Shown: piece after piece, positions 4,461 through 20,504 of the stretch | Position numbering within the stretch: the first letter of the stretch is position 1 | How the letters are laid out: each line of letters begins with the position of its first letter | Made by a program: the position numbers and the translations under genes | Notes under the pieces: model-generated | Told to the model about the DNA's origin: nothing | What the model saw: only the letters and a program-made list of their open reading frames with translations | Databases searched by the model: none | Source of the DNA: Minisyncoccota bacterium | Lineage (GTDB): Bacteria; Patescibacteriota; Minisyncoccia; Phycocordibacterales; JABAAK01 | NCBI GenBank assembly: GCA_965222235.1 | Contig: OZ244939.1 | Coordinates: 94,041 to 158,040, forward strand | Direction of reading: 5' to 3' | DNA: 64,000 nt

Positions 4461-5360
4461 TCACTTTTTATCGTGTATTGATTTCCTCCATGCGTCATCA
4501 TTACGGTATAGTATACCACGGTCTATCTGGTATCTTTCTTTCCTTCTTCCGGAGATGAGTATTGTCAGTATGAGCAGCAGTTCAGCGACGATGACGGTGA
4601 GCAGCACCAGTATTCCCTTCATCAGCGGTGTATGATATTCCGGTATAGTATTCACCACTGTTATGGGCGGGGGCGGTATCGCCACCTCTTTTTCAATTAC
4701 CCGCTGTATGACGGTTTGCGGGACCGGAACAATTGTCTGAACGGCACTCACCGTATCGCTCACCCGCTGTTCCAGGGAGATGTCCGGCTCCGGCTCCTCC
4801 CGAACTGCCTCAGGGCCGCCTGCCGTGTTTTTGACTGTGATCGGATTCACTTCTATGCTCCCCGGCGTTGCGGGTCCCGAAACCTGTTCTCCGTCCGTGA
4901 TATGCAGTGTCGCACCGGTGCCGCTTGCATTTTCATCCGGGGTGTAGTGGAAGGAGGATATTGTCTCCTTCGTCCCCGGGTTATATATCCCTATCTCTTC
5001 TCCCTGACCGCCCCGCTGGCGAAGATTAAATATAGAAAGAAACATCGGTTCGTCATATGTCGGGTGGTCCTGAAGGAAGACATCTTCATCCTGTACGATG
5101 ACTCCCACACCTCCTGCAGCCAGCTCCCGCACGCCCGTGCTTGATTCTTTCAGATGGTGGTTTGTTTTTCCCTCCGCGAGGCGGTATGCAGTTACATCAA
5201 CAGATGTTTCATTGTCATTGAGGATCTCTATCCATTCGTGACCGGCATCCTTCTGCTGCTTCGGATCGTACATTATCTCGGTGATAACAATCTGTGCGAA
5301 TGCCTGAGGTGCAAGCAGCATGGTCAGCGTGCCGAATTGTACTGCCCGCAGCAAGTTCAT
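4461..5360 (-). CDS. secreted lamin-tail-domain (LTD) protein with C-terminal membrane anchor
   Basis: Signal peptide MNLLRAVQFGTLTMLLAPQAFA. LTD signature VITEIMYDP...EWIEILN. Hydrophobic helix LVLLTVIVAELLLILTILI near the C-terminus. Confidence 0.6.
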   Translation of the reverse strand: MNLLRAVQFGTLTMLLAPQAFAQIVITEIMYDPKQQKDAGHEWIEILNDNETSVDVTAYRLAEGKTNHHLKESSTGVRELAAGGVGVIVQDEDVFLQDHPTYDEPMFLSIFNLRQRGGQGEEIGIYNPGTKETISSFHYTPDENASGTGATLHITDGEQVSGPATPGSIEVNPITVKNTAGGPEAVREEPEPDISLEQRVSDTVSAVQTIVPVPQTVIQRVIEKEVAIPPPPITVVNTIPEYHTPLMKGILVLLTVIVAELLLILTILISGRRKERYQIDRGILYRNDDAWRKSIHDKK

Positions 5361-5366
5361 GTTCTA

Positions 5367-7775
5367 TTACTGTCGCCCGAGGATGAGTTTTGGAAGGGAG
5401 AGCGGTTGGCTTTGGTTCCCCGCGCTGTCCGACACCGTCACCGTACAGCCTACGTATTCCCTGCCGGCGATCAGCTCATACGGTATACCGTATCCGCTGT
5501 TCTGTGTCATGAAGCCGAGGCTGCCGTTTCCGCAGGGACCGTCGTAGGCAATCCGCAGCCAGTCGGCCGGCTGTATACCTCCCGCTGTCACCGGAACAAT
5601 AGCACTGTCGGCATCATCAGCGGCAAAGCCGAGCACGGTCGCGGAAGTTCCCGATGTCAATGTCGGAGCATCTGTTTCGCGGACTATGGTGATGACATTT
5701 CTCGCACTGCTTTTTGTGCCGCTGTTGTCGCTGACGGTGAACTTGAACTTCACACGCTTATCATCCTGCTCGCCCACATTGTCTGTGTTTGAACCGGCAA
5801 AGTTAACGGTATAGGTGACGTGCAGGTTGCCGCTGCTGGTGCCGGTGGTGCTGCCCTGAAGATAGTTTATGTGGTTTGTACCGCCCGATGTCACCTCAAT
5901 ATCCACTTTCTCATCATAGTTTGAACTGTTGTACCTGGTATCGTCATCGCTGATCTTTACTCTGAAACTTACCGAGTTTTTCTTCGTGAAAAATATGTTC
6001 TGACCGGGAGCGATTGCGCGCGATTCGTCAAAATGTATCACGCTCACAACCGGTCTGTTTCTGTCTATTGTCGTCGTCTGCACCGCTATTTCCTGCTTCT
6101 GCGGCTCGTGTGTTCGTTCAGAAGCGACTGCGGCAATGCCGGGCGTCGGATTGCCCTCAAATATACTTCCGGTTCCGAGGATGTGAAGCGTGTATCCGTT
6201 ATTATGTGCGCCGTCACTCTTCGTATAGGTAACGGTATCAACGGCGATTCCGTTGGATTTGAGCACCACGGTGTCGCCGGTATTTGTCAGCGATAGGGAG
6301 GCGACGAACAGTTGGCCGGCAAATGACGGATTCTCTATTCTGAATTTCTCCGCGCTGTCGGTGATAACGGCGACATCACCGTGTTCAAGCGCCGTTTCGC
6401 CCGCACCGCCCGAGTCGTACGCAATACTTTTCAGTCCGCCGTCGTCAATAACTAATCCGGAGACTGTGACCGGCACCGTGCCGCTGTTCACTATTTCAAC
6501 CCACTCACTCTCGCCTGATCCGCTGTACTTTATCTCACTTATCTCAACGGTGAGATCGGTGATGCCGGTGATTTGACCGAACGAAGCATAAGCTGTCTGC
6601 TCAAGAAGGTCCGTCACCTTAACACATACATACTTGTCATTGTTCTCAGTCCCGAACAGCACTATTGTTGCGGTGTGTTTCCCGCCGTCAGCCGCGGTTA
6701 CTTTCACCGTTTGTTCCGTTTCCGTTGCCGCGGTATATACCTCTTCCGTTCCGCACGCCGCATCGTGCATTTTGTACGATATATTTTCGGGAGGGGCGCT
6801 CTCGGTGATCCCCACCGTTATCTGTTTTCTTGATGTGTTATCGGTCGGTGATGTAATTGCAAATGCGATAACCGGCGCGACGCGGTCAATATATACCCGT
6901 TTCCCCTGATCGATCAGTGTGCCGTTTTTCAGTTCCTCATCGCCGTTCCTGACGGTATAGGTGATGTTCCCTGACGGGTCGTCCGCAGTGACGGTATAAG
7001 TGAAGGATTTGCTTGTATCAGTTCCGCCGTTCCCGGCAACCATCTCTCTTTGAGAGTTGCCGATGTGCAGCTTGACTGCCGTGCCGCTCGGCAGGTCTCT
7101 CGTGCGGAAGACGTGGAGTGTAATTACAGCATCCGTGTTCAGGAATACCGCGTCGTTAATCTCCTGTTTATTTTTCTGTCCCACCGATGAGGCGACGGCG
7201 ATAGTCGGTTCAACGGCAGTGTATGATTTAATCGGATTCACTTCCACTCTTCCGGGTGTCGCCGGCGCGACGACGAGCTCACCGTCCAGTCCGACATGAA
7301 GTGAAACATCCGTTTTCCCCGTTTGTATTGCGGTATATACGACGCTGTTTATTTCCGTCGTTCCCGTTGCGTCAAACAGCGCAACAGTGCCGTTCGTGTC
7401 AGGAAGATCAAACGCCGCGGTATATATCAAACCGGCATGCCCCGCGTGTCCGGATATAAATACGGAAGCATCTTTGGCAATGATCGCAACCGTCCCGGTT
7501 GTGAGCGTGTTTGCCGTACCGCTGTGTGCGGTTATGGCCAGCTTCTCACCGTCGCCAACCCCGATCTTCAGGGTGGTCAGGTCAATATCACCGCCCGTGT
7601 TAATGATTTCAATATATTCTCCGCCACTTCTCGGATTGTACGCTATCTCCGTTATCTCCACATCACCCGCGCTCTGCGCGTGAGCCGGCGAAGAAAGGTA
7701 TGCGCCGCATACCGCTGTGACCATCACACCTATTGCATATGCGAATCTTGTATGTTTGTTCGGATATTTGTTCAT
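5367..7775 (-). CDS. large secreted surface protein with two LTD domains and Ig-like beta-rich repeats
   Basis: 802 aa. N-terminal signal peptide. LTD motifs VEITEIAYNP...EYIEIIN and VEISEIKYSGSGESEWVEIVN. T/S/G/V-rich beta repeats. Confidence 0.62.
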   Translation of the reverse strand: MNKYPNKHTRFAYAIGVMVTAVCGAYLSSPAHAQSAGDVEITEIAYNPRSGGEYIEIINTGGDIDLTTLKIGVGDGEKLAITAHSGTANTLTTGTVAIIAKDASVFISGHAGHAGLIYTAAFDLPDTNGTVALFDATGTTEINSVVYTAIQTGKTDVSLHVGLDGELVVAPATPGRVEVNPIKSYTAVEPTIAVASSVGQKNKQEINDAVFLNTDAVITLHVFRTRDLPSGTAVKLHIGNSQREMVAGNGGTDTSKSFTYTVTADDPSGNITYTVRNGDEELKNGTLIDQGKRVYIDRVAPVIAFAITSPTDNTSRKQITVGITESAPPENISYKMHDAACGTEEVYTAATETEQTVKVTAADGGKHTATIVLFGTENNDKYVCVKVTDLLEQTAYASFGQITGITDLTVEISEIKYSGSGESEWVEIVNSGTVPVTVSGLVIDDGGLKSIAYDSGGAGETALEHGDVAVITDSAEKFRIENPSFAGQLFVASLSLTNTGDTVVLKSNGIAVDTVTYTKSDGAHNNGYTLHILGTGSIFEGNPTPGIAAVASERTHEPQKQEIAVQTTTIDRNRPVVSVIHFDESRAIAPGQNIFFTKKNSVSFRVKISDDDTRYNSSNYDEKVDIEVTSGGTNHINYLQGSTTGTSSGNLHVTYTVNFAGSNTDNVGEQDDKRVKFKFTVSDNSGTKSSARNVITIVRETDAPTLTSGTSATVLGFAADDADSAIVPVTAGGIQPADWLRIAYDGPCGNGSLGFMTQNSGYGIPYELIAGREYVGCTVTVSDSAGNQSQPLSLPKLILGRQ

Positions 7776-8383
7776 ATTTTTTGAAAAGAGTTTTTTAATT
7801 TCTGCGCGACGAACACTTTTTCATGATAAAGCAAAAACATACGGTATATTCATAAAACATGTTTTCAGTGGAAAACTTTTCACCGGGTTTTTATAAAACT
7901 ACAGGTGTGACGGATTTTTACTTTAAGTTTGGTATGTATAAATCTTATACGAAACGACTTATCTAGTCGTTACTTCATCTCATAGCATTCTACTGTAAGG
8001 GAGGGGGTATGGGCGGTAAGTGTATTTTGGTAGTACAGGGTCACCGTGGAATAATAACTCTTCTCTAAAAATTAACGAAATGAGCATTGCTAACACAGCA
8101 GAGAAAATAATATTCAAAAGTACGGTGATGATTTTCTTGTAAGGTACATCCTTTGTATTTTCTTCTTCTTTGTATCGCCCCTTGATACAAAAAACAGTAG
8201 ACCGGCAATAAGTCTGAGGAGCACCGCGAGTATACCGAGCCATACCCATATATTTCCCTGTTCGCTTTCGTGCGCTCCGCTCCCGCGCCATCTCGCCCAC
8301 CACCTTCCCGCTTACCCGCTTTGCGGGAAGTGGCGGGTTTCATTATTCCAACCATCATTTGGTATACTGTCTATACAAAAGGT

Positions 8384-9142
8384 ATGGAGAAGATTGTAAC
8401 AAAAAAGAAACTGTTAGACACTATCGTGTGTGGGGATGTGTTGGAAATTATGAAAGAAATACCAGATTCCTCCGTTGATTTAGTGATTACATCACCACCA
8501 TATAATATTAAAAATTCTACAGGAAATGGATTAAAAAATGGAAACGGCGGAAAATGGGCGAATGCGGAACTGCAAAACGGCTACTCACATTATGACGACT
8601 GTATGCCGCATGACGAGTATGTGGAGTGGCAGCGAGATTGCCTGCAAGAGATGATGCGCCTTATTCCGGAAGATGGAGCAATTTTCTACAACCACAAGTG
8701 GAGAGTACAAGCCGGGTTGTTGCAAGATCGTCAGGATATTGTGGAAGGGTTTCCGGTGCGACAAATCATTATTTGGCGAAGAAAGGGCGGTTTTAATTTT
8801 AATCCTGGGTATTTTTTGCCCACCTACGAAGTAATTTACTTAATCGCCAAACCAAAGTTTCTGCTGTTACCAAAGGCGAATGCCTGTGGCGATGTATGGG
8901 AGTTTACACAAGAAATGAAAAACAAGCATCCGGCAGCATTTCCTGTTGACCTTATAGACCGTATTATATCCTCAACCAACGCAAAGATTGTTTTAGATCC
9001 GTTTATGGGCTCAGGGACGGTGGCAGTATCAGCAAAAAATCTGAAAAGAAACTATATCGGTATTGATAAATCTCCGGAGTATTGTGAAATGGCGGAACAG
9101 AGGATACAGCAGTGTGAATCTCAACCAGCACTACCTCTATAA
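8384..9142 (+). CDS. beta-class amino-DNA methyltransferase (N4-cytosine or N6-adenine), SPPY then FxGxG order
   Basis: Motif IV DLVITSPPYN precedes motif I VLDPFMGSGTVAVSA, which is the beta permutation as in M.MvaI/M.BcnI-type N4mC MTases. Likely start at ATG 8384 (MEKIVTKKK). The longer ORF from 8270 is a GC-rich read-through. Confidence 0.75.
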   Translation: MEKIVTKKKLLDTIVCGDVLEIMKEIPDSSVDLVITSPPYNIKNSTGNGLKNGNGGKWANAELQNGYSHYDDCMPHDEYVEWQRDCLQEMMRLIPEDGAIFYNHKWRVQAGLLQDRQDIVEGFPVRQIIIWRRKGGFNFNPGYFLPTYEVIYLIAKPKFLLLPKANACGDVWEFTQEMKNKHPAAFPVDLIDRIISSTNAKIVLDPFMGSGTVAVSAKNLKRNYIGIDKSPEYCEMAEQRIQQCESQPALPL

Positions 9143-9143
9143 C

Positions 9144-9947
9144 ATGGTGACAAGAAAGAAAGCAAAAATATACACTAAGAAGGAATTACTACAGAAACTC
9201 AAGGAAATAGCAGACATGGGATGGGTGTCGAATACCAGGCATGGTAATGATGGTGGTGTGGGCAATACTCTTGAAGATTTACTCGGCATTGAAGAAAACA
9301 ACCTGCCGATACCAAACGCCGCCGAGTGGGAACTAAAGACACAGAGAATTAACACAGCATCACTTACTACATTATTTCACAGTGAACCCTCACCCCGCGC
9401 AATTCATTTTGTGCCACAGATATTACTTCCTCTGTACGGCTGGGTACACCAAGAGAGCGGTAAAAAGTACCCAAAAGGTGAAATGAGTTTCAGACAAACG
9501 ATACATGGACAAACAAGAAGTGACCGTGGGTTTATGGTAGTAATTGACCGCAGAAAAAAGAAAGTTTTGATTTCTTTTAATTCCGGCAGTGTTGATGTTC
9601 GGCATAAAAAATGGCTATCGTCTGTCAAAAGGCATGTGGGTCTTGGCGAAATTGATCCGCAGCCATACTGGGGATTTGATGATTTAGAACACAAAGCGGG
9701 TACAAAACTGCTCAATACATTCTATGTGCAGGCAGAGGCAAAAAGGGTTCGTGGCAAAGAGTATTACCGATACACAAAAGTAACAATGTTACAGAAATTT
9801 AGCTTTGACGGTTTTCTCAAAGCACTTGAGGAGGGAAAAATACTTGTTGATTTTGATGCCCGTACCGGACATAATCACGGTACAAAATTTCGCATGAAAC
9901 AAGGTACGCTCCCTACACTGTATGAGAAAAGTAAAATCATTTATTGA
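9144..9947 (+). CDS. putative type II restriction endonuclease partner of the upstream MTase (candidate MvaI/BcnI-like)
   Basis: ATG lies 1 nt after the MTase TAA stop. About 268 aa, AT-rich, no recognisable housekeeping motif. The assignment rests on context plus a weak resemblance (GGVGNTLEDLLGIEENNLPIP...EWELK); it is not proven. Confidence 0.4.
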   Translation: MVTRKKAKIYTKKELLQKLKEIADMGWVSNTRHGNDGGVGNTLEDLLGIEENNLPIPNAAEWELKTQRINTASLTTLFHSEPSPRAIHFVPQILLPLYGWVHQESGKKYPKGEMSFRQTIHGQTRSDRGFMVVIDRRKKKVLISFNSGSVDVRHKKWLSSVKRHVGLGEIDPQPYWGFDDLEHKAGTKLLNTFYVQAEAKRVRGKEYYRYTKVTMLQKFSFDGFLKALEEGKILVDFDARTGHNHGTKFRMKQGTLPTLYEKSKIIY

Positions 9948-10077
9948 TATATAAATCTTTTACAAACAAAGTTTGAGAGTAAATTACCTGTCTTAGTCGA
10001 AAGGACTTTTAGGTGGACTTTTATATAATTTTATTATCTCCGCCTTTTCTTTATTTAATGTTGACTCGTCAATTTGA

Positions 10078-11412
10078 TTGACACGATCGTCCACTTCGCT
10101 AATATCAATAAATCCTCATAAATTGGCAGAAAAAATCGCTAATTCAATAAAGAACCTTGATAGTGACGATAGTCTGGCCATTGGTATTGAAAGTAAGTGG
10201 GGTTCTGGAAAAACATCCTTCGTGAATCTGACACTTGAGAGCTTAAAGGAATCGGATCTTTTAATTATAAAGTTTAATCCTTGGAATTTTTCAGATCAAA
10301 ATGAACTCATCAAAGATTTTTTTAACTCAATTGCAAGAGAGCTGAGTCAGTGTGATGAGGATATAAAAAACAAAAATACTAATAAGTATACCGCAAACCC
10401 CGTTGATTTGATAAGAAGATATTATGTCAAATTACTAAAACGATCAGAAATAACAGTAACGGGATTTAGTTTTTTGTGGTTTAATTTTAGTTTTGGTAAA
10501 AAATCTGAATTTCATGATAGTACTCCATTAGAGAAACAGAAAGAGGAGATTAACGGGACTCTAAAAAACGCAGGGAAACGAATAGTGATTGTTATTGATG
10601 ACATTGACAGATTAGATAAAGAAGAAACGAAGACTGTTTTTAAATTGGTAAAAAATACTGCAAGGTTTAGTAATATAACCTTTCTTCTGACTTATGATAG
10701 AAGAAGAGTGTGTAAGCAAGTGAGTGATGAAGAAGTTGATGGGGAGGAGTACTTGAAGAAAATTATACAAATGAGATTTCCTTTGCCAAAGCCGGAGAAA
10801 CAATACCTGTTCAATATTCTTTTTGCAAGAATTGATTCTGTTATAGATGTGGACAAAAATGATATAGTGCGGTTGCAGCGTCTTTTTCATTCCGGTTTCA
10901 AAAATCTTTTCCCCACCGTTCGTGATATAAAGAGATATATAAACAGCATAAGACTTGATTTGGCGGCGATAGGGAGAGAAGAGATAAATCCTGTTGATTT
11001 TTTGGGTGTTGGAGCCATCAGAGTATTCGCCCCTGCCATCTATCAATCCATGGTTGATGAAAAAGATGCTTTTATCGGCCTTGATAGTGGTTTTATAAAT
11101 GATCCTAACCGAAGTGAAGAGCGGGAAAAGAGAAAAAATATCTGTGAAAACATAATAGCGGAAAAATCTCCCGAAGGATTATCTGATATTGTCAAAACAA
11201 TAATTCATGAACTTTTTCCTCAATGCAGATCTCTTTACTCCAACACACATTATGGTCCTGATTGGGAGTCAGAATGGAGAAAGGAGTTGAGAGTTTGTTC
11301 CAAACATTTTTTTGATAGATATTTCTCACTTTCTGTCCCTTCAACATCTGTCTCAGAAAATACCATAAATGATCTTTTAAGGAATATCAACAGTAGGGGG
11401 AAGATTCACTAA
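10078..11412 (+). CDS. KAP-family P-loop NTPase (N-terminal part)
   Basis: Walker A GIESKWGSGKTSF and the KAP signature IKFNPWNF. Walker B VIVIDDIDRL. Confidence 0.6.
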   Translation: MTRSSTSLISINPHKLAEKIANSIKNLDSDDSLAIGIESKWGSGKTSFVNLTLESLKESDLLIIKFNPWNFSDQNELIKDFFNSIARELSQCDEDIKNKNTNKYTANPVDLIRRYYVKLLKRSEITVTGFSFLWFNFSFGKKSEFHDSTPLEKQKEEINGTLKNAGKRIVIVIDDIDRLDKEETKTVFKLVKNTARFSNITFLLTYDRRRVCKQVSDEEVDGEEYLKKIIQMRFPLPKPEKQYLFNILFARIDSVIDVDKNDIVRLQRLFHSGFKNLFPTVRDIKRYINSIRLDLAAIGREEINPVDFLGVGAIRVFAPAIYQSMVDEKDAFIGLDSGFINDPNRSEEREKRKNICENIIAEKSPEGLSDIVKTIIHELFPQCRSLYSNTHYGPDWESEWRKELRVCSKHFFDRYFSLSVPSTSVSENTINDLLRNINSRGKIH

Positions 11413-11416
11413 AAAA

Positions 11417-12163
11417 TTGAAAGAGTTTGAAGAGGACAAGATGTACTCTGTATTTGATCGCCTTTCTGATCACACAGATAGTTTAGACGATCAGGAGCTT
11501 CAAAATTTAATTTTGGGAATATTTGATGCTGCCGATCATGTGGAAGATTTGGGAGAAATAAGATTTGATTTTCAGAATATTGATACAAAAGCAATGCTGA
11601 TTGCCCATGAAACCTTGAAAAAGGTTCAGAAAGAAAAAAGATTTGATTTGATTTCCAAAATCCTTAATGTACAAGAAATATATTTTTCTTGCGCATTATT
11701 AATATTTCACTTGAACAAGGAGTTTGAGGATTCTAAGGGAAGAAATTCAGGAGAATCTCCAACATTAACAGGGGATGAGGTTAATAATCTGAAAAGCGTT
11801 TTTATTAAAAAAATAAAAGAGCAGGCAAAAAATGGTTCGTTGGCTAACAGCAAAAATCTTCCATATTTCCTTTACAGATGGAAAGAATGGGGTTTAGAGA
11901 AAGAGGTAAGAAAGTATGTAAAAGAATTATCACAAACAGATGAAGGGTTGTTGATTCTGCTTGAGAAGTTTGAGTCAGTTTCAACTGAAACAAGCAATGA
12001 GGGGACAAAAACGATCAAGAGAGTCGACAAAGAGTCAATCGGACGACCTAATAGATCCTCTTTCTTTGTTTCTATTGGATTGTCTGAAATCATAATTTCC
12101 ATGATACTAGATTATCCTTATCAAGGCACAACATTCCCACCTTTGTTCTTTTTGCTCCGCTAA
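11417..12163 (+). CDS. hypothetical protein. It may be the C-terminal remainder of a split KAP NTPase.
   Basis: It starts 4 nt after the 10078..11412 stop, in the +1 frame, with a TTG start. KAP NTPases are normally 600-900 aa, so 444+248 aa would fit a disrupted single gene. Confidence 0.3.
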   Translation: MKEFEEDKMYSVFDRLSDHTDSLDDQELQNLILGIFDAADHVEDLGEIRFDFQNIDTKAMLIAHETLKKVQKEKRFDLISKILNVQEIYFSCALLIFHLNKEFEDSKGRNSGESPTLTGDEVNNLKSVFIKKIKEQAKNGSLANSKNLPYFLYRWKEWGLEKEVRKYVKELSQTDEGLLILLEKFESVSTETSNEGTKTIKRVDKESIGRPNRSSFFVSIGLSEIIISMILDYPYQGTTFPPLFFLLR

Positions 12164-12441
12164 TGCTCCGCAAAAAGTCTAAAGGTGGGAAAACGAAGCG
12201 AAACAGACACACCGAGCCAAAAAGTGAAAAAATAAAATGGTGGTGCGTAAGCACGCCCGTCTTATTTTTGAACGAGCGAGGTGTTGTCTGTGAAGCGAAG
12301 TGGTACTCGTTATACTACTGAGCGCGTCTCGCGCCTTTCTGAGCGCACGGAGGATTGACACGCAACAGGGTGGAGTGCGGATCCGGAGTAAGCAGAGCGA
12401 TAGGGCGCTGTGGTGTTTGGAGCGTACGAGGTATCTTCATG

Positions 12442-12515
12442 TGCTGAGGGTGGGACTCGAACCCACGACCCTTCGCTCTTCAGGCGAATGCTCTAGCCAA
12501 CTGAGCTACCTCAGC
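12442..12515 (-). tRNA. tRNA-Phe (GAA)
   Basis: Reverse complement GCTGAGGTAGCTCAGTTGGCTAGAGCATTCGCCTGAAGAGCGAAGGGTCGTGGGTTCGAGTCCCACCCTCAGCA. Cloverleaf with anticodon loop CTGAAGA. Confidence 0.85.
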
Positions 12516-12544
12516 GATATCGGGCAGTATACACTATTCCGCAT

Positions 12545-12835
12545 TCAGTTAATAGTCTCTTTTAACTTATCAAACGCATCAATCGTGTTTTTGACTTCTG
12601 ATATAAGTATCGTTGTTTTGTCCCTAATTTCAATTACCGTCTCTTTGTATTCTGTATACAGATAGTATCCGAATCCGGAAACGAACAGAGTTACACACAG
12701 AAATACGAATGTTTTCATATGACGCATGGCTCTCTCGGAGCGGAGCATGCGGTTATTCTCTTTCGTGAGACGCGTCAGCTTATCAACTTTCCTTTCCAGG
12801 CGGTCAATGTCGTTATTATTCTCTTCCATGTGCAT
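12545..12835 (-). CDS. hypothetical small membrane protein
   Basis: 96 aa. Coiled N-terminal part, then one TM helix FVFLCVTLFVSGFGYYLY. Confidence 0.3.
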   Translation of the reverse strand: MHMEENNNDIDRLERKVDKLTRLTKENNRMLRSERAMRHMKTFVFLCVTLFVSGFGYYLYTEYKETVIEIRDKTTILISEVKNTIDAFDKLKETIN

Positions 12836-12853
12836 AGTATACCTGTCTCAGGG

Positions 12854-12926
12854 CCTCCCCGTCAGGATTTGAACCTGAATCTGATCCTTAGGAGGGACCC
12901 GTTCTATCCTATTGAACTACGGGGAG
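12854..12926 (-). tRNA. tRNA-Arg (CCT)
   Basis: Reverse complement CTCCCCGTAGTTCAATAGGATAGAACGGGTCCCTCCTAAGGATCAGATTCAGGTTCAAATCCTGACGGGGAGG. Anticodon loop CTCCTAA. Confidence 0.8.
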
Positions 12927-12932
12927 AGGCGG

Positions 12933-13178
12933 TTATTCAGTTATACCGAGCGCCTCCATCACCTTCTGCTTATCAAAGCCGACAATCATTTCAGTATTAT
13001 CTATGAACATAACCGGCACACCGAGCTGCTGGCTTCGTTCGGTCAACTCCTTCCTCTTTTCTTCATCAGCAGTAACATCGTACTCGGTGTATGCGATTGA
13101 CCGCTCGTCCAGAAAGTTTTTCAGATCCTTGCAGAAATGACAGCCTGGGGATGTGTATATTTCTATTTTTTTATCCAT
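12933..13178 (-). CDS. glutaredoxin-like protein (NrdH/Grx family)
   Basis: 81 aa. CxxC active site SPGCHFCKD near the N-terminus. Thioredoxin-fold length. Confidence 0.7.
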   Translation of the reverse strand: MDKKIEIYTSPGCHFCKDLKNFLDERSIAYTEYDVTADEEKRKELTERSQQLGVPVMFIDNTEMIVGFDKQKVMEALGITE

Positions 13179-13230
13179 GTCTCTTTGTTGTATTTTTTAA
13201 TACACCTGTACTATACCACACCGAACAGGG

Positions 13231-13563
13231 TCACTGTTCAATCACTTTGAAGTCCTCATTTTCGGTGTACACCTTGTTTTTTACTCCCGGCGCATGCGAT
13301 CCGACTATCGCAATGCTGTGTATGGGTACGGTTTCGGATGCTTCGCCGGCAATATTTCCGGCGTATTGTTTCCGCAGATTTATCTCTTCCAGCTTCCGTT
13401 TCCACTCCTTTTGATTCTCAAATACCCGCCACGTATTATGCAGATGTTCCCCGCTTATCTTCCATGCGTAGATGGAGGTACTGAGATTAAACACACTGAA
13501 CACCAAAAAGAAAACGACGAAGATGCTGATTATCCATATGCCTTTTATATTCTTTCTGTGCAT
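13231..13563 (-). CDS. hypothetical membrane protein
   Basis: 110 aa. N-terminal TM helix IWIISIFVVFFLVFSVF. Confidence 0.3.
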   Translation of the reverse strand: MHRKNIKGIWIISIFVVFFLVFSVFNLSTSIYAWKISGEHLHNTWRVFENQKEWKRKLEEINLRKQYAGNIAGEASETVPIHSIAIVGSHAPGVKNKVYTENEDFKVIEQ

Positions 13564-13704
13564 ACACCCTATGGTATAGTATATACCTATATGAGAAACC
13601 TTCGTGATGTTTTCAAAAAAACCGTCGTGTGGGGTATTGTTTCTCTGGTCATCATTGCCTTCGTGGTGACATCAATGCCGGGAATTATATAGACAATGCG
13701 CCGG

Positions 13705-15507
13705 CTACCCCGATCTCTTCTGAATGACCTTTAGGAATGTGTCATGCGGAACAGTGACCTTACCGACGGCGCCCATTTTCTGTTTCCCCTTCTTCTGCTT
13801 CTCCCGCAGCTTCATTTTTCTGGTAATATCACCGCCGTAGAGTTTTGCAGTAACATCTTTTCTCAGCGCCGGCAGCGTTTTTGAGGCGATAATCTTGCCG
13901 TCTATTTTCGCCTGTATCTTCACCGTGAACAGTGTTCTTGGCACGGTCTCGTGGAGAATGCCGACAAATTCACGCGCTTCCCGTTCGGCATGTGTTCGGG
14001 AAACAATACTGGAAAACGCGGGGAACAGTTCCTCGGCGAGCAGAATATCCAGGCGGGCGACGTCGGACGGACGGTTTTCAATTCTTCTGTACGACAGCGA
14101 CGCATAGCCGGAACTGATGCTTTTCAGCCGATCAAAAAAACGGCGCATGAGTTCCCGGAGCGGCATCTCGCCCTCCATAACACAGCGGTTATTGTTAAAG
14201 TCCCGCACACTGTTGATGTATCCTTCGTATTCGGAAAATAGGCGCGATACCGCGGATACATACTCCCCGGGCATGATAATTGACACGACAACCCACGGCT
14301 CTGTCACTGATTGAATGTCATTACGATCAGGAAATTTTGCCGCCGTGGTCACCGTGCGGACCTCCCCTTTTCTGTCCGTTATGATATAGTCGGTGCTCGG
14401 CGAGGTAATGATGAGATCCACATGCGCCTCCCTGCGAATCCGTTCGGTGATAATTTCAAGATGCAGCATACCCAAAAATCCGCAGCGGAATCCCTTGCCG
14501 AGCGCGGTTGACTGTTCTTCTTCGTAGGTGAACGCGGCGTCAGACAGGCGCATCTGTTTCAGTGTATGAAGCAGCGCGGTGTGGTTATCGGCCGACTGCG
14601 GATACAGCGACGCCCAGACAACCGGCTTCATCTCCCGGTATCCGGGAAATGACGCAACGGCTGCATGTACATGGGCTATGGTATCACCGACTACGGCAAT
14701 CCCCGGTTCCTTGATGCCGGTCGTGAAATAGCCGATCATTCCTCCGTGCAGTTCGCCGGTCGGGGTGATGTCCGGCTTGAATATGCCGATGCTCTTGAGA
14801 ATAAATGGCGCCCGCACCTCACGCATCACGAGGCGATCACCCTCTTTGAATGAACCGCTGAATATCCGTGCATATGCGTTTATCCCCGTGTGGGTGGTAT
14901 AGGAGAAGTCAAAGACCAGCGCCCGGGCTTCTGTTCCCTCTTCCGGCTGCGGGGGCCTGATACCGTCCACCACCGCATTAAGCAGATCATGCACCCCCTC
15001 GCCTGTTTTTCCCGACACCAGATGTATATCCTCCTTAGCACACCCAAGCAGATCCGTCACCTCCCTGGAAATGTCGCCGACGCGCGCGTGATCCATATCT
15101 ATTTTTGAGAGCACGGGTATAACGGTGAGGTCAAGGTCCCGTGCCATATCCAGCACCGCCACGGTCTGCGCCTGCACGCCCTGGGTCGCGTCAACGAGCA
15201 GAATGACCCCCTCCACCGCCCGCAGCGAACGGGACACTTCGTATGAAAAATCAATATGACCGGGTGTGTCTATGATATTGAGGGTATATGCCGTACCGTC
15301 CTTTGTATGCGTGACGGACACCGGCTGCATCTTTATCGTAATTCCCCGCTCGCGTTCCAGCTCCATTCGGTCAAGCACCTGCTCTTTCATCTGCCGCTTG
15401 TCTATCGTCCCGGTGTATTCAAGTATTCTGTCGGCAAGTGTTGATTTTCCGTGGTCAACATGGGCGATGATTGAGATATTCCGTATAGTGTTCATGTATG
15501 TCATCAT
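13705..15507 (-). CDS. lepA: translation elongation factor 4 (LepA)
   Basis: 600 aa. G1 AHVDHGKST, G3 DTPGH. Characteristic LepA C-terminal region. Confidence 0.9.
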   Translation of the reverse strand: MMTYMNTIRNISIIAHVDHGKSTLADRILEYTGTIDKRQMKEQVLDRMELERERGITIKMQPVSVTHTKDGTAYTLNIIDTPGHIDFSYEVSRSLRAVEGVILLVDATQGVQAQTVAVLDMARDLDLTVIPVLSKIDMDHARVGDISREVTDLLGCAKEDIHLVSGKTGEGVHDLLNAVVDGIRPPQPEEGTEARALVFDFSYTTHTGINAYARIFSGSFKEGDRLVMREVRAPFILKSIGIFKPDITPTGELHGGMIGYFTTGIKEPGIAVVGDTIAHVHAAVASFPGYREMKPVVWASLYPQSADNHTALLHTLKQMRLSDAAFTYEEEQSTALGKGFRCGFLGMLHLEIITERIRREAHVDLIITSPSTDYIITDRKGEVRTVTTAAKFPDRNDIQSVTEPWVVVSIIMPGEYVSAVSRLFSEYEGYINSVRDFNNNRCVMEGEMPLRELMRRFFDRLKSISSGYASLSYRRIENRPSDVARLDILLAEELFPAFSSIVSRTHAEREAREFVGILHETVPRTLFTVKIQAKIDGKIIASKTLPALRKDVTAKLYGGDITRKMKLREKQKKGKQKMGAVGKVTVPHDTFLKVIQKRSG

Positions 15508-19424: not shown

Positions 19425-20123
19425 TTACTTTGAAAACAATTCGCACGCTTCGCCCACATCAAACAGGTTTCCTCCGTGTCTGTTTGTTTCCACAAAGTAG
19501 TGTCCTTTCAGGTTTGGTAAATTGAAACACAGTACTTCACTGTGGAACAAGATGCCATCAAATACATCTTTCGGAAGGGAAACAATACTTGTTATCTCCG
19601 GATACTCACCGCGTGCAAACTTCATCCATCTCTTACTTACTTCGGTTTGGTTTAATCTAAATCCGTATGGTGTGAACATAACTATCGGCATGTTTTTACC
19701 GAATAACTCTATTGCTTTTTGTAACCATATTTCTGGCAACAATGGTCTGCCACCATAATTTTCTTTTATACACTGTTTCGTCTTTCCATCTATGTTAAAA
19801 GGTGGATTCATAATTACAAGAGAAACATCTTCCTCAACTTTATCACTCGTTAATTCTAAATAATTTAACACTTTTGTTTCTGGGAAACCTTGATCCTCTA
19901 TGTCAACGCCGACAACATCATACCCGCTCTTCTCCCATGGCAATAGGAGTGATCCTCCGCCAACACAAGGATCAAAAATCACTCCATTTTCTTTTTTTAT
20001 GCTTGGTTCCAAAATGTTAAAGAGAAAATCACTCACCTCTATTGGTGTATAGATAGTCGCCTTCTTTTGGGTAGTGTAGAAGTTGTTTCTGTCCACTCGG
20101 TACATACTTGAAGTATACCCCAC
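19425..20123 (-). CDS. gamma-class N6-adenine DNA methyltransferase, small, orphan
   Basis: Motif I FDPCVGGGSLL followed by motif IV NPPF. 232 aa. AT-rich local composition. No nuclease gene adjacent. Confidence 0.65.
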   Translation of the reverse strand: MGYTSSMYRVDRNNFYTTQKKATIYTPIEVSDFLFNILEPSIKKENGVIFDPCVGGGSLLLPWEKSGYDVVGVDIEDQGFPETKVLNYLELTSDKVEEDVSLVIMNPPFNIDGKTKQCIKENYGGRPLLPEIWLQKAIELFGKNMPIVMFTPYGFRLNQTEVSKRWMKFARGEYPEITSIVSLPKDVFDGILFHSEVLCFNLPNLKGHYFVETNRHGGNLFDVGEACELFSK

Positions 20124-20413
20124 TTCAAATATTGTTGCTATAATATCGGTATGATTTTTAAGGTACTCGTAATCTTATTGTTGGTGGCAATACTTGCTGC
20201 AATCACTGCTCCAGTATGGTTCTCAGTGTTGCTGCTGTTCTTATTCACCTCAACACCTGTATAGATACTGCAAATAGTTGCGATTTGTCAATTATCTCTT
20301 TGGAAAACAATAACATCAAACCTATTATTGAATACAAAAAGTAAGAAGGACTCCCAACGCACAAACACGTTTCGGACCCCCTCTCATATTGATACACCAT
20401 CTTTACCTTCCGG

Positions 20414-20504
20414 CGGAGGGGGAGGGATTCGAACCCTCGATACGGGTATGAAACCGTATACCAGTTTTCGAAACCGGCGCTTTCAACCACTCAGCCACCC
20501 CTCC
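20414..20504 (-). tRNA. tRNA-Ser (CGA), long variable arm
   Basis: Reverse complement GGAGGGGTGGCTGAGTGGTTGAAAGCGCCGGTTTCGAAAACTGGTATACGGTTTCATACCCGTATCGAGGGTTCGAATCCCTCCCCCTCCG. Confidence 0.8.

Follow-up and report, generated by a model that had tools for sequence, protein, structure and literature searches.

An apparently functional MvaI/BcnI-type restriction-modification cassette and a probable KAP NTPase pseudogene beside tRNA-Phe in a Minisyncoccota genome

Results

A small defence islet next to tRNA-Phe

We analysed a stretch of 64,000 nucleotides from a Minisyncoccota bacterium (assembly GCA_965222235.1, contig OZ244939.1, positions 94,041 to 158,040 of the forward strand), referred to below as the window, in which a restriction-modification (R-M) gene pair and an interrupted gene for a KAP P-loop NTPase lie side by side. 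The R-M pair belongs to the MvaI/BcnI family, within a subfamily that has a variant active site, and the KAP gene is a degraded PifA-like KAP NTPase gene. Both were found between a tRNA-Phe gene and a gene for a surface protein with a lamin-tail domain (LTD), and the features are listed in Table 1 with coordinates counted from the first nucleotide of the window. Our verdict is that the locus is an ordinary small defence islet, holding an apparently functional Type IIP R-M cassette and what is most likely a KAP NTPase pseudogene.

An earlier note on this DNA had proposed an AT-rich island at 7780-12200. The drop in GC content was confirmed (from 0.52-0.55 in the flanks to 0.32-0.43 across about 7500-12000), while the boundaries had to be moved: by comparison with other genomes and with independent contigs, the foreign part extends from about 8297 to about 12190, or about 3.9 kb. 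Within it the R-M cassette has a GC content of 0.42 and the KAP gene one of 0.345, against 0.53 in the host genes. Since the two modules differ in GC and each occurs without the other elsewhere, they are separate acquisitions. Taking the explanation as a whole, we consider it highly probable that the insert is composite and consists of two defence modules acquired independently in a variable slot.

Table 1. Features of the insert and of its tRNA-bearing edge (positions in the window).
Feature	Position	Strand	Basis or remark
GC-rich hairpin, left edge of the R-M cassette	8295..8338	+	RNA fold -26.7 kcal/mol, z -5.45
Extended -10-like element TGGTATACT, putative promoter	8360..8368	+	15 nt upstream of the methyltransferase ATG
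Beta-class DNA methyltransferase, predicted N4-cytosine specific	8384..9142	+	Pfam PF01555, PADLOC MTase_II, PDB 8s9n
MvaI/BcnI-family (MutH-like, PD-(D/E)XK) Type IIP restriction endonuclease, Asn-variant subfamily	9144..9947	+	PF15515, PADLOC, PDB
5' part of PifA-like KAP P-loop NTPase gene	10078..11412	+	PF07693 E 1.1e-46; PADLOC PifA E 4.7e-70
G5 homopolymer, likeliest +1 insertion site	11396..11400	+	homologue alignment
3' part of the KAP gene, +1 frame	11417..12163	+	PADLOC PifA E 1.8e-20; 248 codons open
Long hairpin over the KAP stop codon, right insert edge	12134..12191	.	inverted repeat; RNA fold -31.7 kcal/mol, z -6.3
tRNA-Phe(gaa)	12441..12515	-	ARAGORN; Rfam 73.7 bits; 3' end toward the insert
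tRNA-Arg(cct)	12851..12927	-	ARAGORN, Rfam

The methyltransferase and endonuclease genes form a tightly coupled operon

The methyltransferase (MTase) open reading frame (ORF) spans 8270-9142, and homology together with the conserved start indicates that translation begins at the ATG at 8384. The protein matches Pfam N6_N4_Mtase PF01555 (E 6e-42) and the PADLOC MTase_II profile (E 2e-116). SPPY (motif IV) was located at residue 37 and FMGSG (motif I) at residue 207, and this order of IV before I, which had already been read from the sequence as SPPY before FxGxG, assigns the enzyme to the beta class. Among solved structures the closest is that of N4CMT, an N4-cytosine MTase from a rotifer (PDB 8s9n, E 3.8e-34), whose motif IV is likewise SPPY, whereas the adenine MTase CcrM has DPPY. 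The predicted product is N4-methylcytosine (m4C), which would be placed in a CCNGG-type pentanucleotide. According to PMC3001055, m4C protection is known for MvaI, and a beta-class SPPY partner in the window is consistent with this.

The downstream gene encodes the restriction endonuclease (REase, 267 aa). It matches Pfam MvaI_BcnI PF15515 over 227/227 profile positions (E 2e-66, 224.7 bits with a cut-off of 25) and the PADLOC REase_II profile (E 4.6e-84). Against solved structures it aligned end to end with MvaI (2oa9, E 6.4e-19 by phmmer, about 30% identity), and with BcnI (2odh, E 4.4e-9) through the N-terminal lobe alone, the C-terminal lobe failing to align. The ORF is thus a nuclease homologue and has no non-nuclease assignment, and the MvaI/BcnI-type R-M pair with an N4mC MTase proposed in the earlier note is borne out by the full-length Pfam match of the REase and by the N4-cytosine SPPY enzyme as the nearest solved relative of the MTase. 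The ENA gene callers begin the REase gene at an upstream GTG, which gives 277 aa; REase homologues of 264-266 aa begin at the residue equivalent to the ATG at 9144.

At the junction of the two genes the MTase stop codon TAA occupies 9140-9142 and is followed by a single C (9143) and the REase ATG (9144), exactly the 1-nt separation that had been described. In related cassettes the genes overlap by up to 26 nt or lie up to 7 nt apart, and the two genes are tightly coupled in 62/62 loci, so the co-oriented pair has the architecture of a Type II R-M operon, as had been supposed. The 1-nt gap would bring about translational coupling, so that no REase would be made without MTase. Module 1 (8297-9947) is a self-contained Type IIP cassette that comprises the hairpin, a putative promoter of its own and the MTase and REase genes, and it looks intact and functional. 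The promoter role of TGGTATACT is suggested by its conservation in the upstream alignment of the window with L004 and L005, two cassette-bearing sequences described below.

Both proteins also match one PADLOC profile, PDLC03305 (513 positions, labelled MTase_II), the MTase at 9-243 and the REase at 254-507. The sequences behind this profile were apparently M-R pairs of the R-M cassette that are fused or had been annotated together.

An asparagine replaces the metal-binding aspartate of the endonuclease

The active site of MvaI consists of Glu36, Asp50, Glu55 and Lys57, and both metal ions are ligated by Asp50 (PMC1874612). Equivalents of Glu36 (the E of TLEDLL) and of Glu55 and Lys57 (the E-L-K of EWELK) were found in the window REase. 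The canonical Asp was not: Asn58, in the motif ENNLPIPNAAEWELK, aligns with the metal-chelating Asp50 of MvaI and Asp55 of BcnI. A search at E <=1e-5 returned 7221 REase homologues, and the same Asn occurs in all of the best 120 of these 7221. Among more distant representatives (57 sequences of at least 230 aa, from the best 150 matches in a search of 50%-identity cluster representatives) Asn was found in 17/57 and Asp in 35/57. Glu or Asp stands three residues after the site in 15/16 Asn-type sequences vs 10/33 Asp-type sequences (Fisher p 3e-5, calculated without phylogenetic correction), and in the window REase this acid is at residue 61, three residues past Asn58. Because the Asn type co-varies with an acid three residues later, the catalytic carboxylate may have migrated and the Asn-type enzymes may well be active.

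With respect to the target, the MvaI recognition residues His223, His225 and Arg230 are retained as HNHGTKFR (the HxHGTxFR segment of MvaI), and Thr68 is retained as well. In MvaI (CC/WGG) these four residues read the outer C:G pairs, while Arg209 reads the central T; in BcnI (CC/SGG), H77 is one of two histidines reading the central C:G pair. The residues for the outer pairs are kept, Arg209 is not, and a His is found at the H77 position; the REase target is therefore probably a CCNGG-type pentanucleotide, with the central base left unassigned. By analogy with MvaI and BcnI, the enzyme would be monomeric, and its single active site would cleave first one strand of an unmethylated site and then the other.

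Several points weigh against an active enzyme of this specificity. Asn at the metal-chelating Asp position means that REase activity is not assured, and the residues for the central base give a mixed picture, with a His at the BcnI H77 position yet no conserved MvaI Arg209. The 64-kb window shows no significant avoidance of the expected sites relative to a Markov-3 model (CCWGG ratio 0.79, z -1.7; CCSGG 0.96); the control GGWCC is as low as CCWGG (ratio 0.74), which makes site avoidance uninformative. The AlphaFold2 (AF2) model of the REase, built with 39 close homologues, was poor, with a mean predicted local distance difference test score (pLDDT) of 57.5 and a catalytic segment below 50.

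An alternative is that the REase homologue is catalytically dead through the Asn and that the locus encodes an MTase together with a DNA-binding or nicking-defective protein. The residue in question binds both metals as Asp50 of MvaI (PMC1874612), and it is Asn in the window REase and in 120/120 of the closest homologues, as this alternative expects. The same distribution speaks against it, since the Asn type (17/57 distant representatives and all 120 listed closest homologues) forms a large subfamily under strong purifying selection. Moreover, the Asn-type REase is always paired and tightly coupled with an MTase, the equivalents of Glu36, Glu55 and Lys57 are retained, and the co-varying Glu/Asp three residues on (15/16 vs 10/33) points to a moved carboxylate. 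We regard a dead enzyme as unlikely, and an REase with a displaced carboxylate remains the preferred reading.

The cassette shows signs of horizontal spread among CPR lineages

The 1.65-kb cassette (promoter, M and R) is about 75-92% identical across many lineages of the Candidate Phyla Radiation (CPR). DNA homology of the window to L004, a circular 829-kb CPR genome, amounts to 90% identity and is limited to 8297-9942; homology to L005 amounts to 83% and is limited to 8335-9896. The part shared with L004 and L005 comprises the hairpin, TGGTATACT, M and R, while the flanks are unrelated and there is no KAP gene. The hairpin at 8295-8338 aligns with the L004 sequence directly upstream of its MTase.

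The best 120 of the 7221 REase homologues are 75-100% identical to the window protein and come from Daviesbacteria, Peregrinibacteria, Sungbacteria, Staskawiczbacteria and other Patescibacteria. The window LepA is 41-55% identical to that of genomes from such lineages, and 77% identical to that of the closest species (a Candidatus Pacebacteria chromosome). Horizontal spread of the cassette is indicated because across the same kinds of lineages the REase is about 75-80% identical and LepA 41-55%. A mainly phage-borne cassette was considered and rejected, as 2.9 million viral contigs gave 10 distant matches (49-69% identity), some of them with a different MTase.

That Patescibacteria carry R-M systems on genomic islands has been described before in broad outline (PMC12455944). 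The CPR literature searched, a limited library, holds no mention of MvaI or BcnI, the cassette, its Asn variant or the tRNA association, and the UbaLAI paper contains nothing on active-site variants.

As a separate observation, AGACT/AGTCT (AGWCT) is under-represented relative to the Markov-3 expectation in L004 (ratio 0.33), L005 (0.12) and L007 (0.15), the last being a relative of the window considered in the next section. It is not under-represented in the window (40 observed vs 47 expected). The scarcity in these three sequences may reflect another R-M specificity.

The slot behind tRNA-Phe is a variable hotspot

The earlier note had placed tRNA-Phe and tRNA-Arg at the far edge of the island and read this as a sign of tRNA-targeted integration. 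Both tRNA genes were confirmed by ARAGORN and Rfam. L007 and L010 (a Kaiserbacteria relative) share the conserved backbone LepA-Grx-tRNA-Arg-small protein-tRNA-Phe, and what follows tRNA-Phe varies. In L007 the tRNA gene is followed by genes for a VTT-domain membrane protein and for a protein of 141 aa, and then by the LTD gene. In L010 a truncated C5 cytosine DNA MTase (13679-14461; PF00145 E 2e-68, positions 2-209/324) begins 40 nt past the tRNA-Phe gene at the syntenic place, a further methylase in decay in this slot. L005 carries the R-M cassette 77 nt past tRNA-Phe. Because L007, L010 and L005 have differing genes at this place, the slot after tRNA-Phe is a variable hotspot.

The association of the cassette with tRNA genes was also counted in 80 metagenome loci carrying it. 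A co-oriented tRNA gene, of various identities, lies within 400 bp upstream of the MTase in 12/57 evaluable loci, and no tRNA gene of any kind lies within 400 bp downstream of the REase (0/75 evaluable loci). The remaining flanks (about 319 kb) hold 13 tRNAs only, from which we estimate that about 1 such locus would be expected by chance; the cassette is accordingly about tenfold enriched directly 3' of tRNA genes. L004 (tRNA-Met) and L005 (tRNA-Phe) fit this pattern. In the window the cassette is oriented opposite to the usual tRNA-to-M-to-R order, and the KAP gene separates it from tRNA-Phe.

No integrase or recombinase was found among the listed ORFs of at least 50 aa, the long ones of which were scanned against Pfam, and a repeat search of the island returned no tRNA-derived direct repeat. 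In a Smith-Waterman comparison of the island with tRNA-Phe and its flank, the best tRNA-Phe-derived match scored 20, against a shuffle mean of 19.6 and a maximum of 24. The tRNA association is therefore supported in a weaker form than had been proposed: the variable slot and the enrichment of the cassette 3' of tRNAs elsewhere speak for a hotspot phenomenon, while the missing integrase and tRNA-derived repeat mean that an integrase mechanism is not demonstrated.

The stronger version would make the whole of 7780-12200 a classical integrative element that entered tRNA-Phe by means of a tyrosine integrase and has since lost both the integrase and the att repeat. The insert does abut the 3' side of tRNA-Phe, its cargo differs in relatives, and the window contains a second MTase gene of low GC on the 3' side of tRNA-Ser. 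Set against this are the lack of an integrase or recombinase ORF, a tRNA-Phe repeat score at shuffle level, the different GC content and separate occurrence elsewhere of the R-M and KAP modules, and the reversed cassette with the KAP gene in between. Such an element is, in our estimation, also an unlikely origin, and a composite insert in a variable slot is retained as the better account.

The second MTase gene was found at 19425-20123 (- strand), in another low-GC patch (0.37-0.45) of the window. It encodes a 232-aa N6_Mtase-type DNA MTase (PF02384 E 2e-10) with FDPCVGGGS and NPPF motifs. A tRNA-Ser(cga) gene in the same orientation (20412-20504, - strand) lies about 290 nt upstream of it. 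No nuclease partner is evident, and the next gene is RmuC.

The KAP NTPase gene is frameshifted and probably decaying

The KAP gene starts with TTG, and its 5' part is open for 444 codons up to a premature TAA. Walker A (GSGKTS, residue 42) and Walker B (VIVIDDIDR, residue 170) were recognised in this part. On the PADLOC PifA profile (PDLC02361, 720 positions) the 5' part matches at 23-459 and the 3' part at 483-680, so that the two are collinear. A search with both parts joined returned 1155 KAP homologues, the best of which are single ORFs of about 690-700 aa that span both parts collinearly. The description of a KAP NTPase interrupted after 444 aa and continued by a +1-frame ORF at 11417-12163 was thus correct. 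In the homologue alignment frame 1 can be followed through ...NINSRG and the +1 frame from RFTKKLKEF. Since the interval of the frame switch is 11396-11400, one extra G in the G5 run is the simplest lesion, and module 2 (10078-12163) would be a PifA-like KAP NTPase inactivated by this +1 insertion.

Further signs of decay were found at both ends of the gene. The N-terminus departs from the conserved MIPDNPI...DLL motif. At the other end, homology to full-length relatives stops near 12040 and the last 40-45 codons or so are unalignable; the conserved ...FTDIxELDKRV...LYKN tail is not encoded in any frame over 11990-12260, and a second frameshift rescuing the C-terminus was rejected for this reason. 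A search of 5.8 billion proteins turned up no intact KAP allele with an identity above 61%. The closest homologue, P0168 (L079 6001-7363, 61% identity), is itself cut short at the position corresponding to residue 426, and 17 nt separate its end from the 3' end of a tRNA-Ala(tgc) gene that converges on it.

The frameshift is present in other assemblies. L003 (ENA ERZ25067264, from a different sample, 2x coverage) represents the same strain and agrees with the window at G5. Over 5075-13050 it differs from the window by 13 single-base indels, all in short homopolymers and 12 of them insertions in L003, and none falls at G5. The Logan contig L006, assembled from another run, agrees fully with the window over 9803-12213 (100% identity), and two genes are called in it as well. 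The split was therefore seen in three independent assemblies and is not readily explained by a sequencing error that hides one long ORF. As a side observation, the indels of L003 fragment its own MTase and KAP gene calls, a case of low-coverage assembly error mimicking pseudogenes.

Because the frameshift occurs in three assemblies, no intact allele above 61% identity exists in the proteins searched, the N-terminus is divergent and the C-terminus unalignable, the KAP gene is most likely a decaying pseudogene, and a loss of its function is likely on the same comparisons. Some observations weigh against this conclusion. The three assemblies may share a sequencing technology, so that a systematic homopolymer error is possible, and the homopolymer insertions in L003 are the same type of change as the KAP lesion. 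In addition, Walker A and B are intact in the split gene, and residual function of the N-terminal product is possible.

A gene that still functions was weighed next. It would work either as two polypeptides, one being the NTPase part and the other the helical C-terminal part, or with the help of +1 ribosomal frameshifting, or of transcriptional slippage, in the G5/A6 runs. The intact Walker motifs and the open 444 and 248 codons would agree with it, as would the position of the break between the NTPase-proximal part and the C-terminal helical region (judged from the AF2 model of a homologue) and the stop of P0168 near the same place, at residue 426. This explanation is nevertheless improbable. 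At least 100 other homologues of comparable length are all single ORFs, and no +1 slippery motif was recognised beside the stop codon when the sequence was read by eye. In L079 the C-terminal part is absent and a tRNA gene stands in its place, which is a truncation and not a conserved split. Tested KAP defence proteins, recently shown to be antiphage and to have C-terminal regions that are uncharacterised, need the NTPase and the C-terminal region within one protein (PMC13552941). Programmed frameshifting in particular was rejected on the missing slippery site, the single-ORF homologues and the deleted C-terminal part in L079.

Still less credible is an assembly or basecalling artefact in an organism with an intact, working PifA-like defence gene of about 690 aa, for although removing one base from the G5 run suffices and L003 shows that +1 homopolymer insertions arise in such data (13 errors in 8 kb), no L003 error falls at G5, where it matches the window, the independent Logan assembly is 100% identical across the site with two genes called, and the TTG start, the divergent N-terminus and the unalignable C-terminal tail are decay that a one-base fix leaves in place. 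A KAP pseudogene is thus kept as the most likely reading.

The AF2 model of the homologue P0121 (pLDDT 85) has a P-loop domain, a long helical region and a small beta/alpha tail. A low-confidence disordered insert at 119-146 and no obvious membrane helices were seen in the model, to which no dedicated transmembrane predictor was applied. The intact family would act as STAND/AAA+-like sensor ATPases, and the nearest solved structure is RdrA of RADAR.

Two homologues were also inspected for their surroundings. The gene after P0168 in L079 encodes 691 aa with a weak RIIA.1-like Pfam match. The full-length homologue P0161 (L170 1-12067, on a 760-kb contig) lies between genes for a giant PIN-TPR-GreABC protein, an AAA_13 ATPase, a HicA toxin and a TPR-UvrD helicase, and by its gene content this region resembles a dense defence island of a small genome, a setting that gives contextual support for a role in phage exclusion.

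Edges and neighbourhood of the insert

The right edge of the insert lies at about 12184-12213, where independent Logan contigs stop (at 12184 and at 12213). Logan contigs 100% identical to the window terminate at 8441 (L002), at 9803 and 12213 (L006) and at 12184 (L001), and L001 and L006 overlap by 30 nt. These breaks may come from k-mers common to other R-M cassettes in the sample, or from presence/absence variation of the insert in the population.

On the other side the islet is flanked by two neighbouring LTD proteins of 802 and 299 aa (4461-7775, - strand) with signal-peptide-like N-termini, which look like the large surface proteins typical of CPR genomes; an LTD protein is also found at the syntenic position in L007. 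An 81-aa ORF at 7980-8225 (- strand) has no Pfam match, and it was rejected as a counterpart of the co-located 141-aa protein of L007, to which it is unrelated (E 6.9). The spacer between the insert and the 3' end of tRNA-Phe (12192-12440, 250 nt, GC 0.51) has a fold z of only -2.0 and contains no ORF and no Rfam match. On its minus strand, at about 12226-12262, a short stem is followed by AUUUUAUUUUUU, and the two may form the tRNA-Phe terminator. An Rfam scan of 7000-13500 (E <=1) returned the two tRNAs and no other non-coding RNA.

Discussion

PifA of the E. coli F plasmid is the founding prokaryotic KAP NTPase and excludes phage T7. The window gene resembles it in that both halves match the PADLOC PifA profile collinearly and that a KAP P-loop with Walker A/B is present, and intact KAP relatives are likewise single genes of about 700 aa. 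The differences are that the window gene is frameshifted and has no pifC-like neighbour, and that the likeness was found through the profile and not through the sequence of F-plasmid PifA itself; plasmid-borne KAP relatives detected by tblastn are at most 32% identical. To RdrA of RADAR (8fnt, 8fnu) there is a resemblance in fold, with an identity of 12-13% and a large root-mean-square deviation. No RdrB adenosine deaminase gene is adjacent in the window, and the locus is not a member of the RADAR systems. The antiphage KAP NTPases of PMC13552941 have the same architecture, a KAP NTPase followed by a long helical region without a Pfam domain. They differ in having transmembrane helices, none of which is obvious in the model of the KAP family studied here with its disordered insert, and the window copy is broken.

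For the R-M module, we put forward one joint reading as a tentative proposal that is more doubtful than not. It holds that the CPR harbour a widespread subfamily with a migrated carboxylate, in which PD...ExK has become PN-x2-[E/D]-x-E-x-K, and that a minimal promoter-M-R unit spreads among Patescibacteria lineages by inserting, with a preference, directly 3' of co-oriented tRNAs without a recombinase of its own. If this is true, R-M cassettes would have a way into these streamlined genomes that has gone unrecognised, and the CCNGG enzymes might include one with a new specificity.

The ultra-small CPR bacteria are largely without CRISPR. For their biology the present result is mostly confirmatory: CPR bacteria carry and exchange compact Type II R-M cassettes and let other defence genes, here a KAP NTPase, decay. 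An MTase that proves active would leave a methylation motif by which CPR contigs might be linked in methylation-based metagenome binning. The enrichment of the cassette 3' of tRNAs offers a concrete, testable pattern of R-M gene movement. The Asn-type REase subfamily, abundant and conserved, lends itself to testing how plastic the active site of MutH-like nucleases is, and it might yield new CCNGG-type enzymes or nickases.

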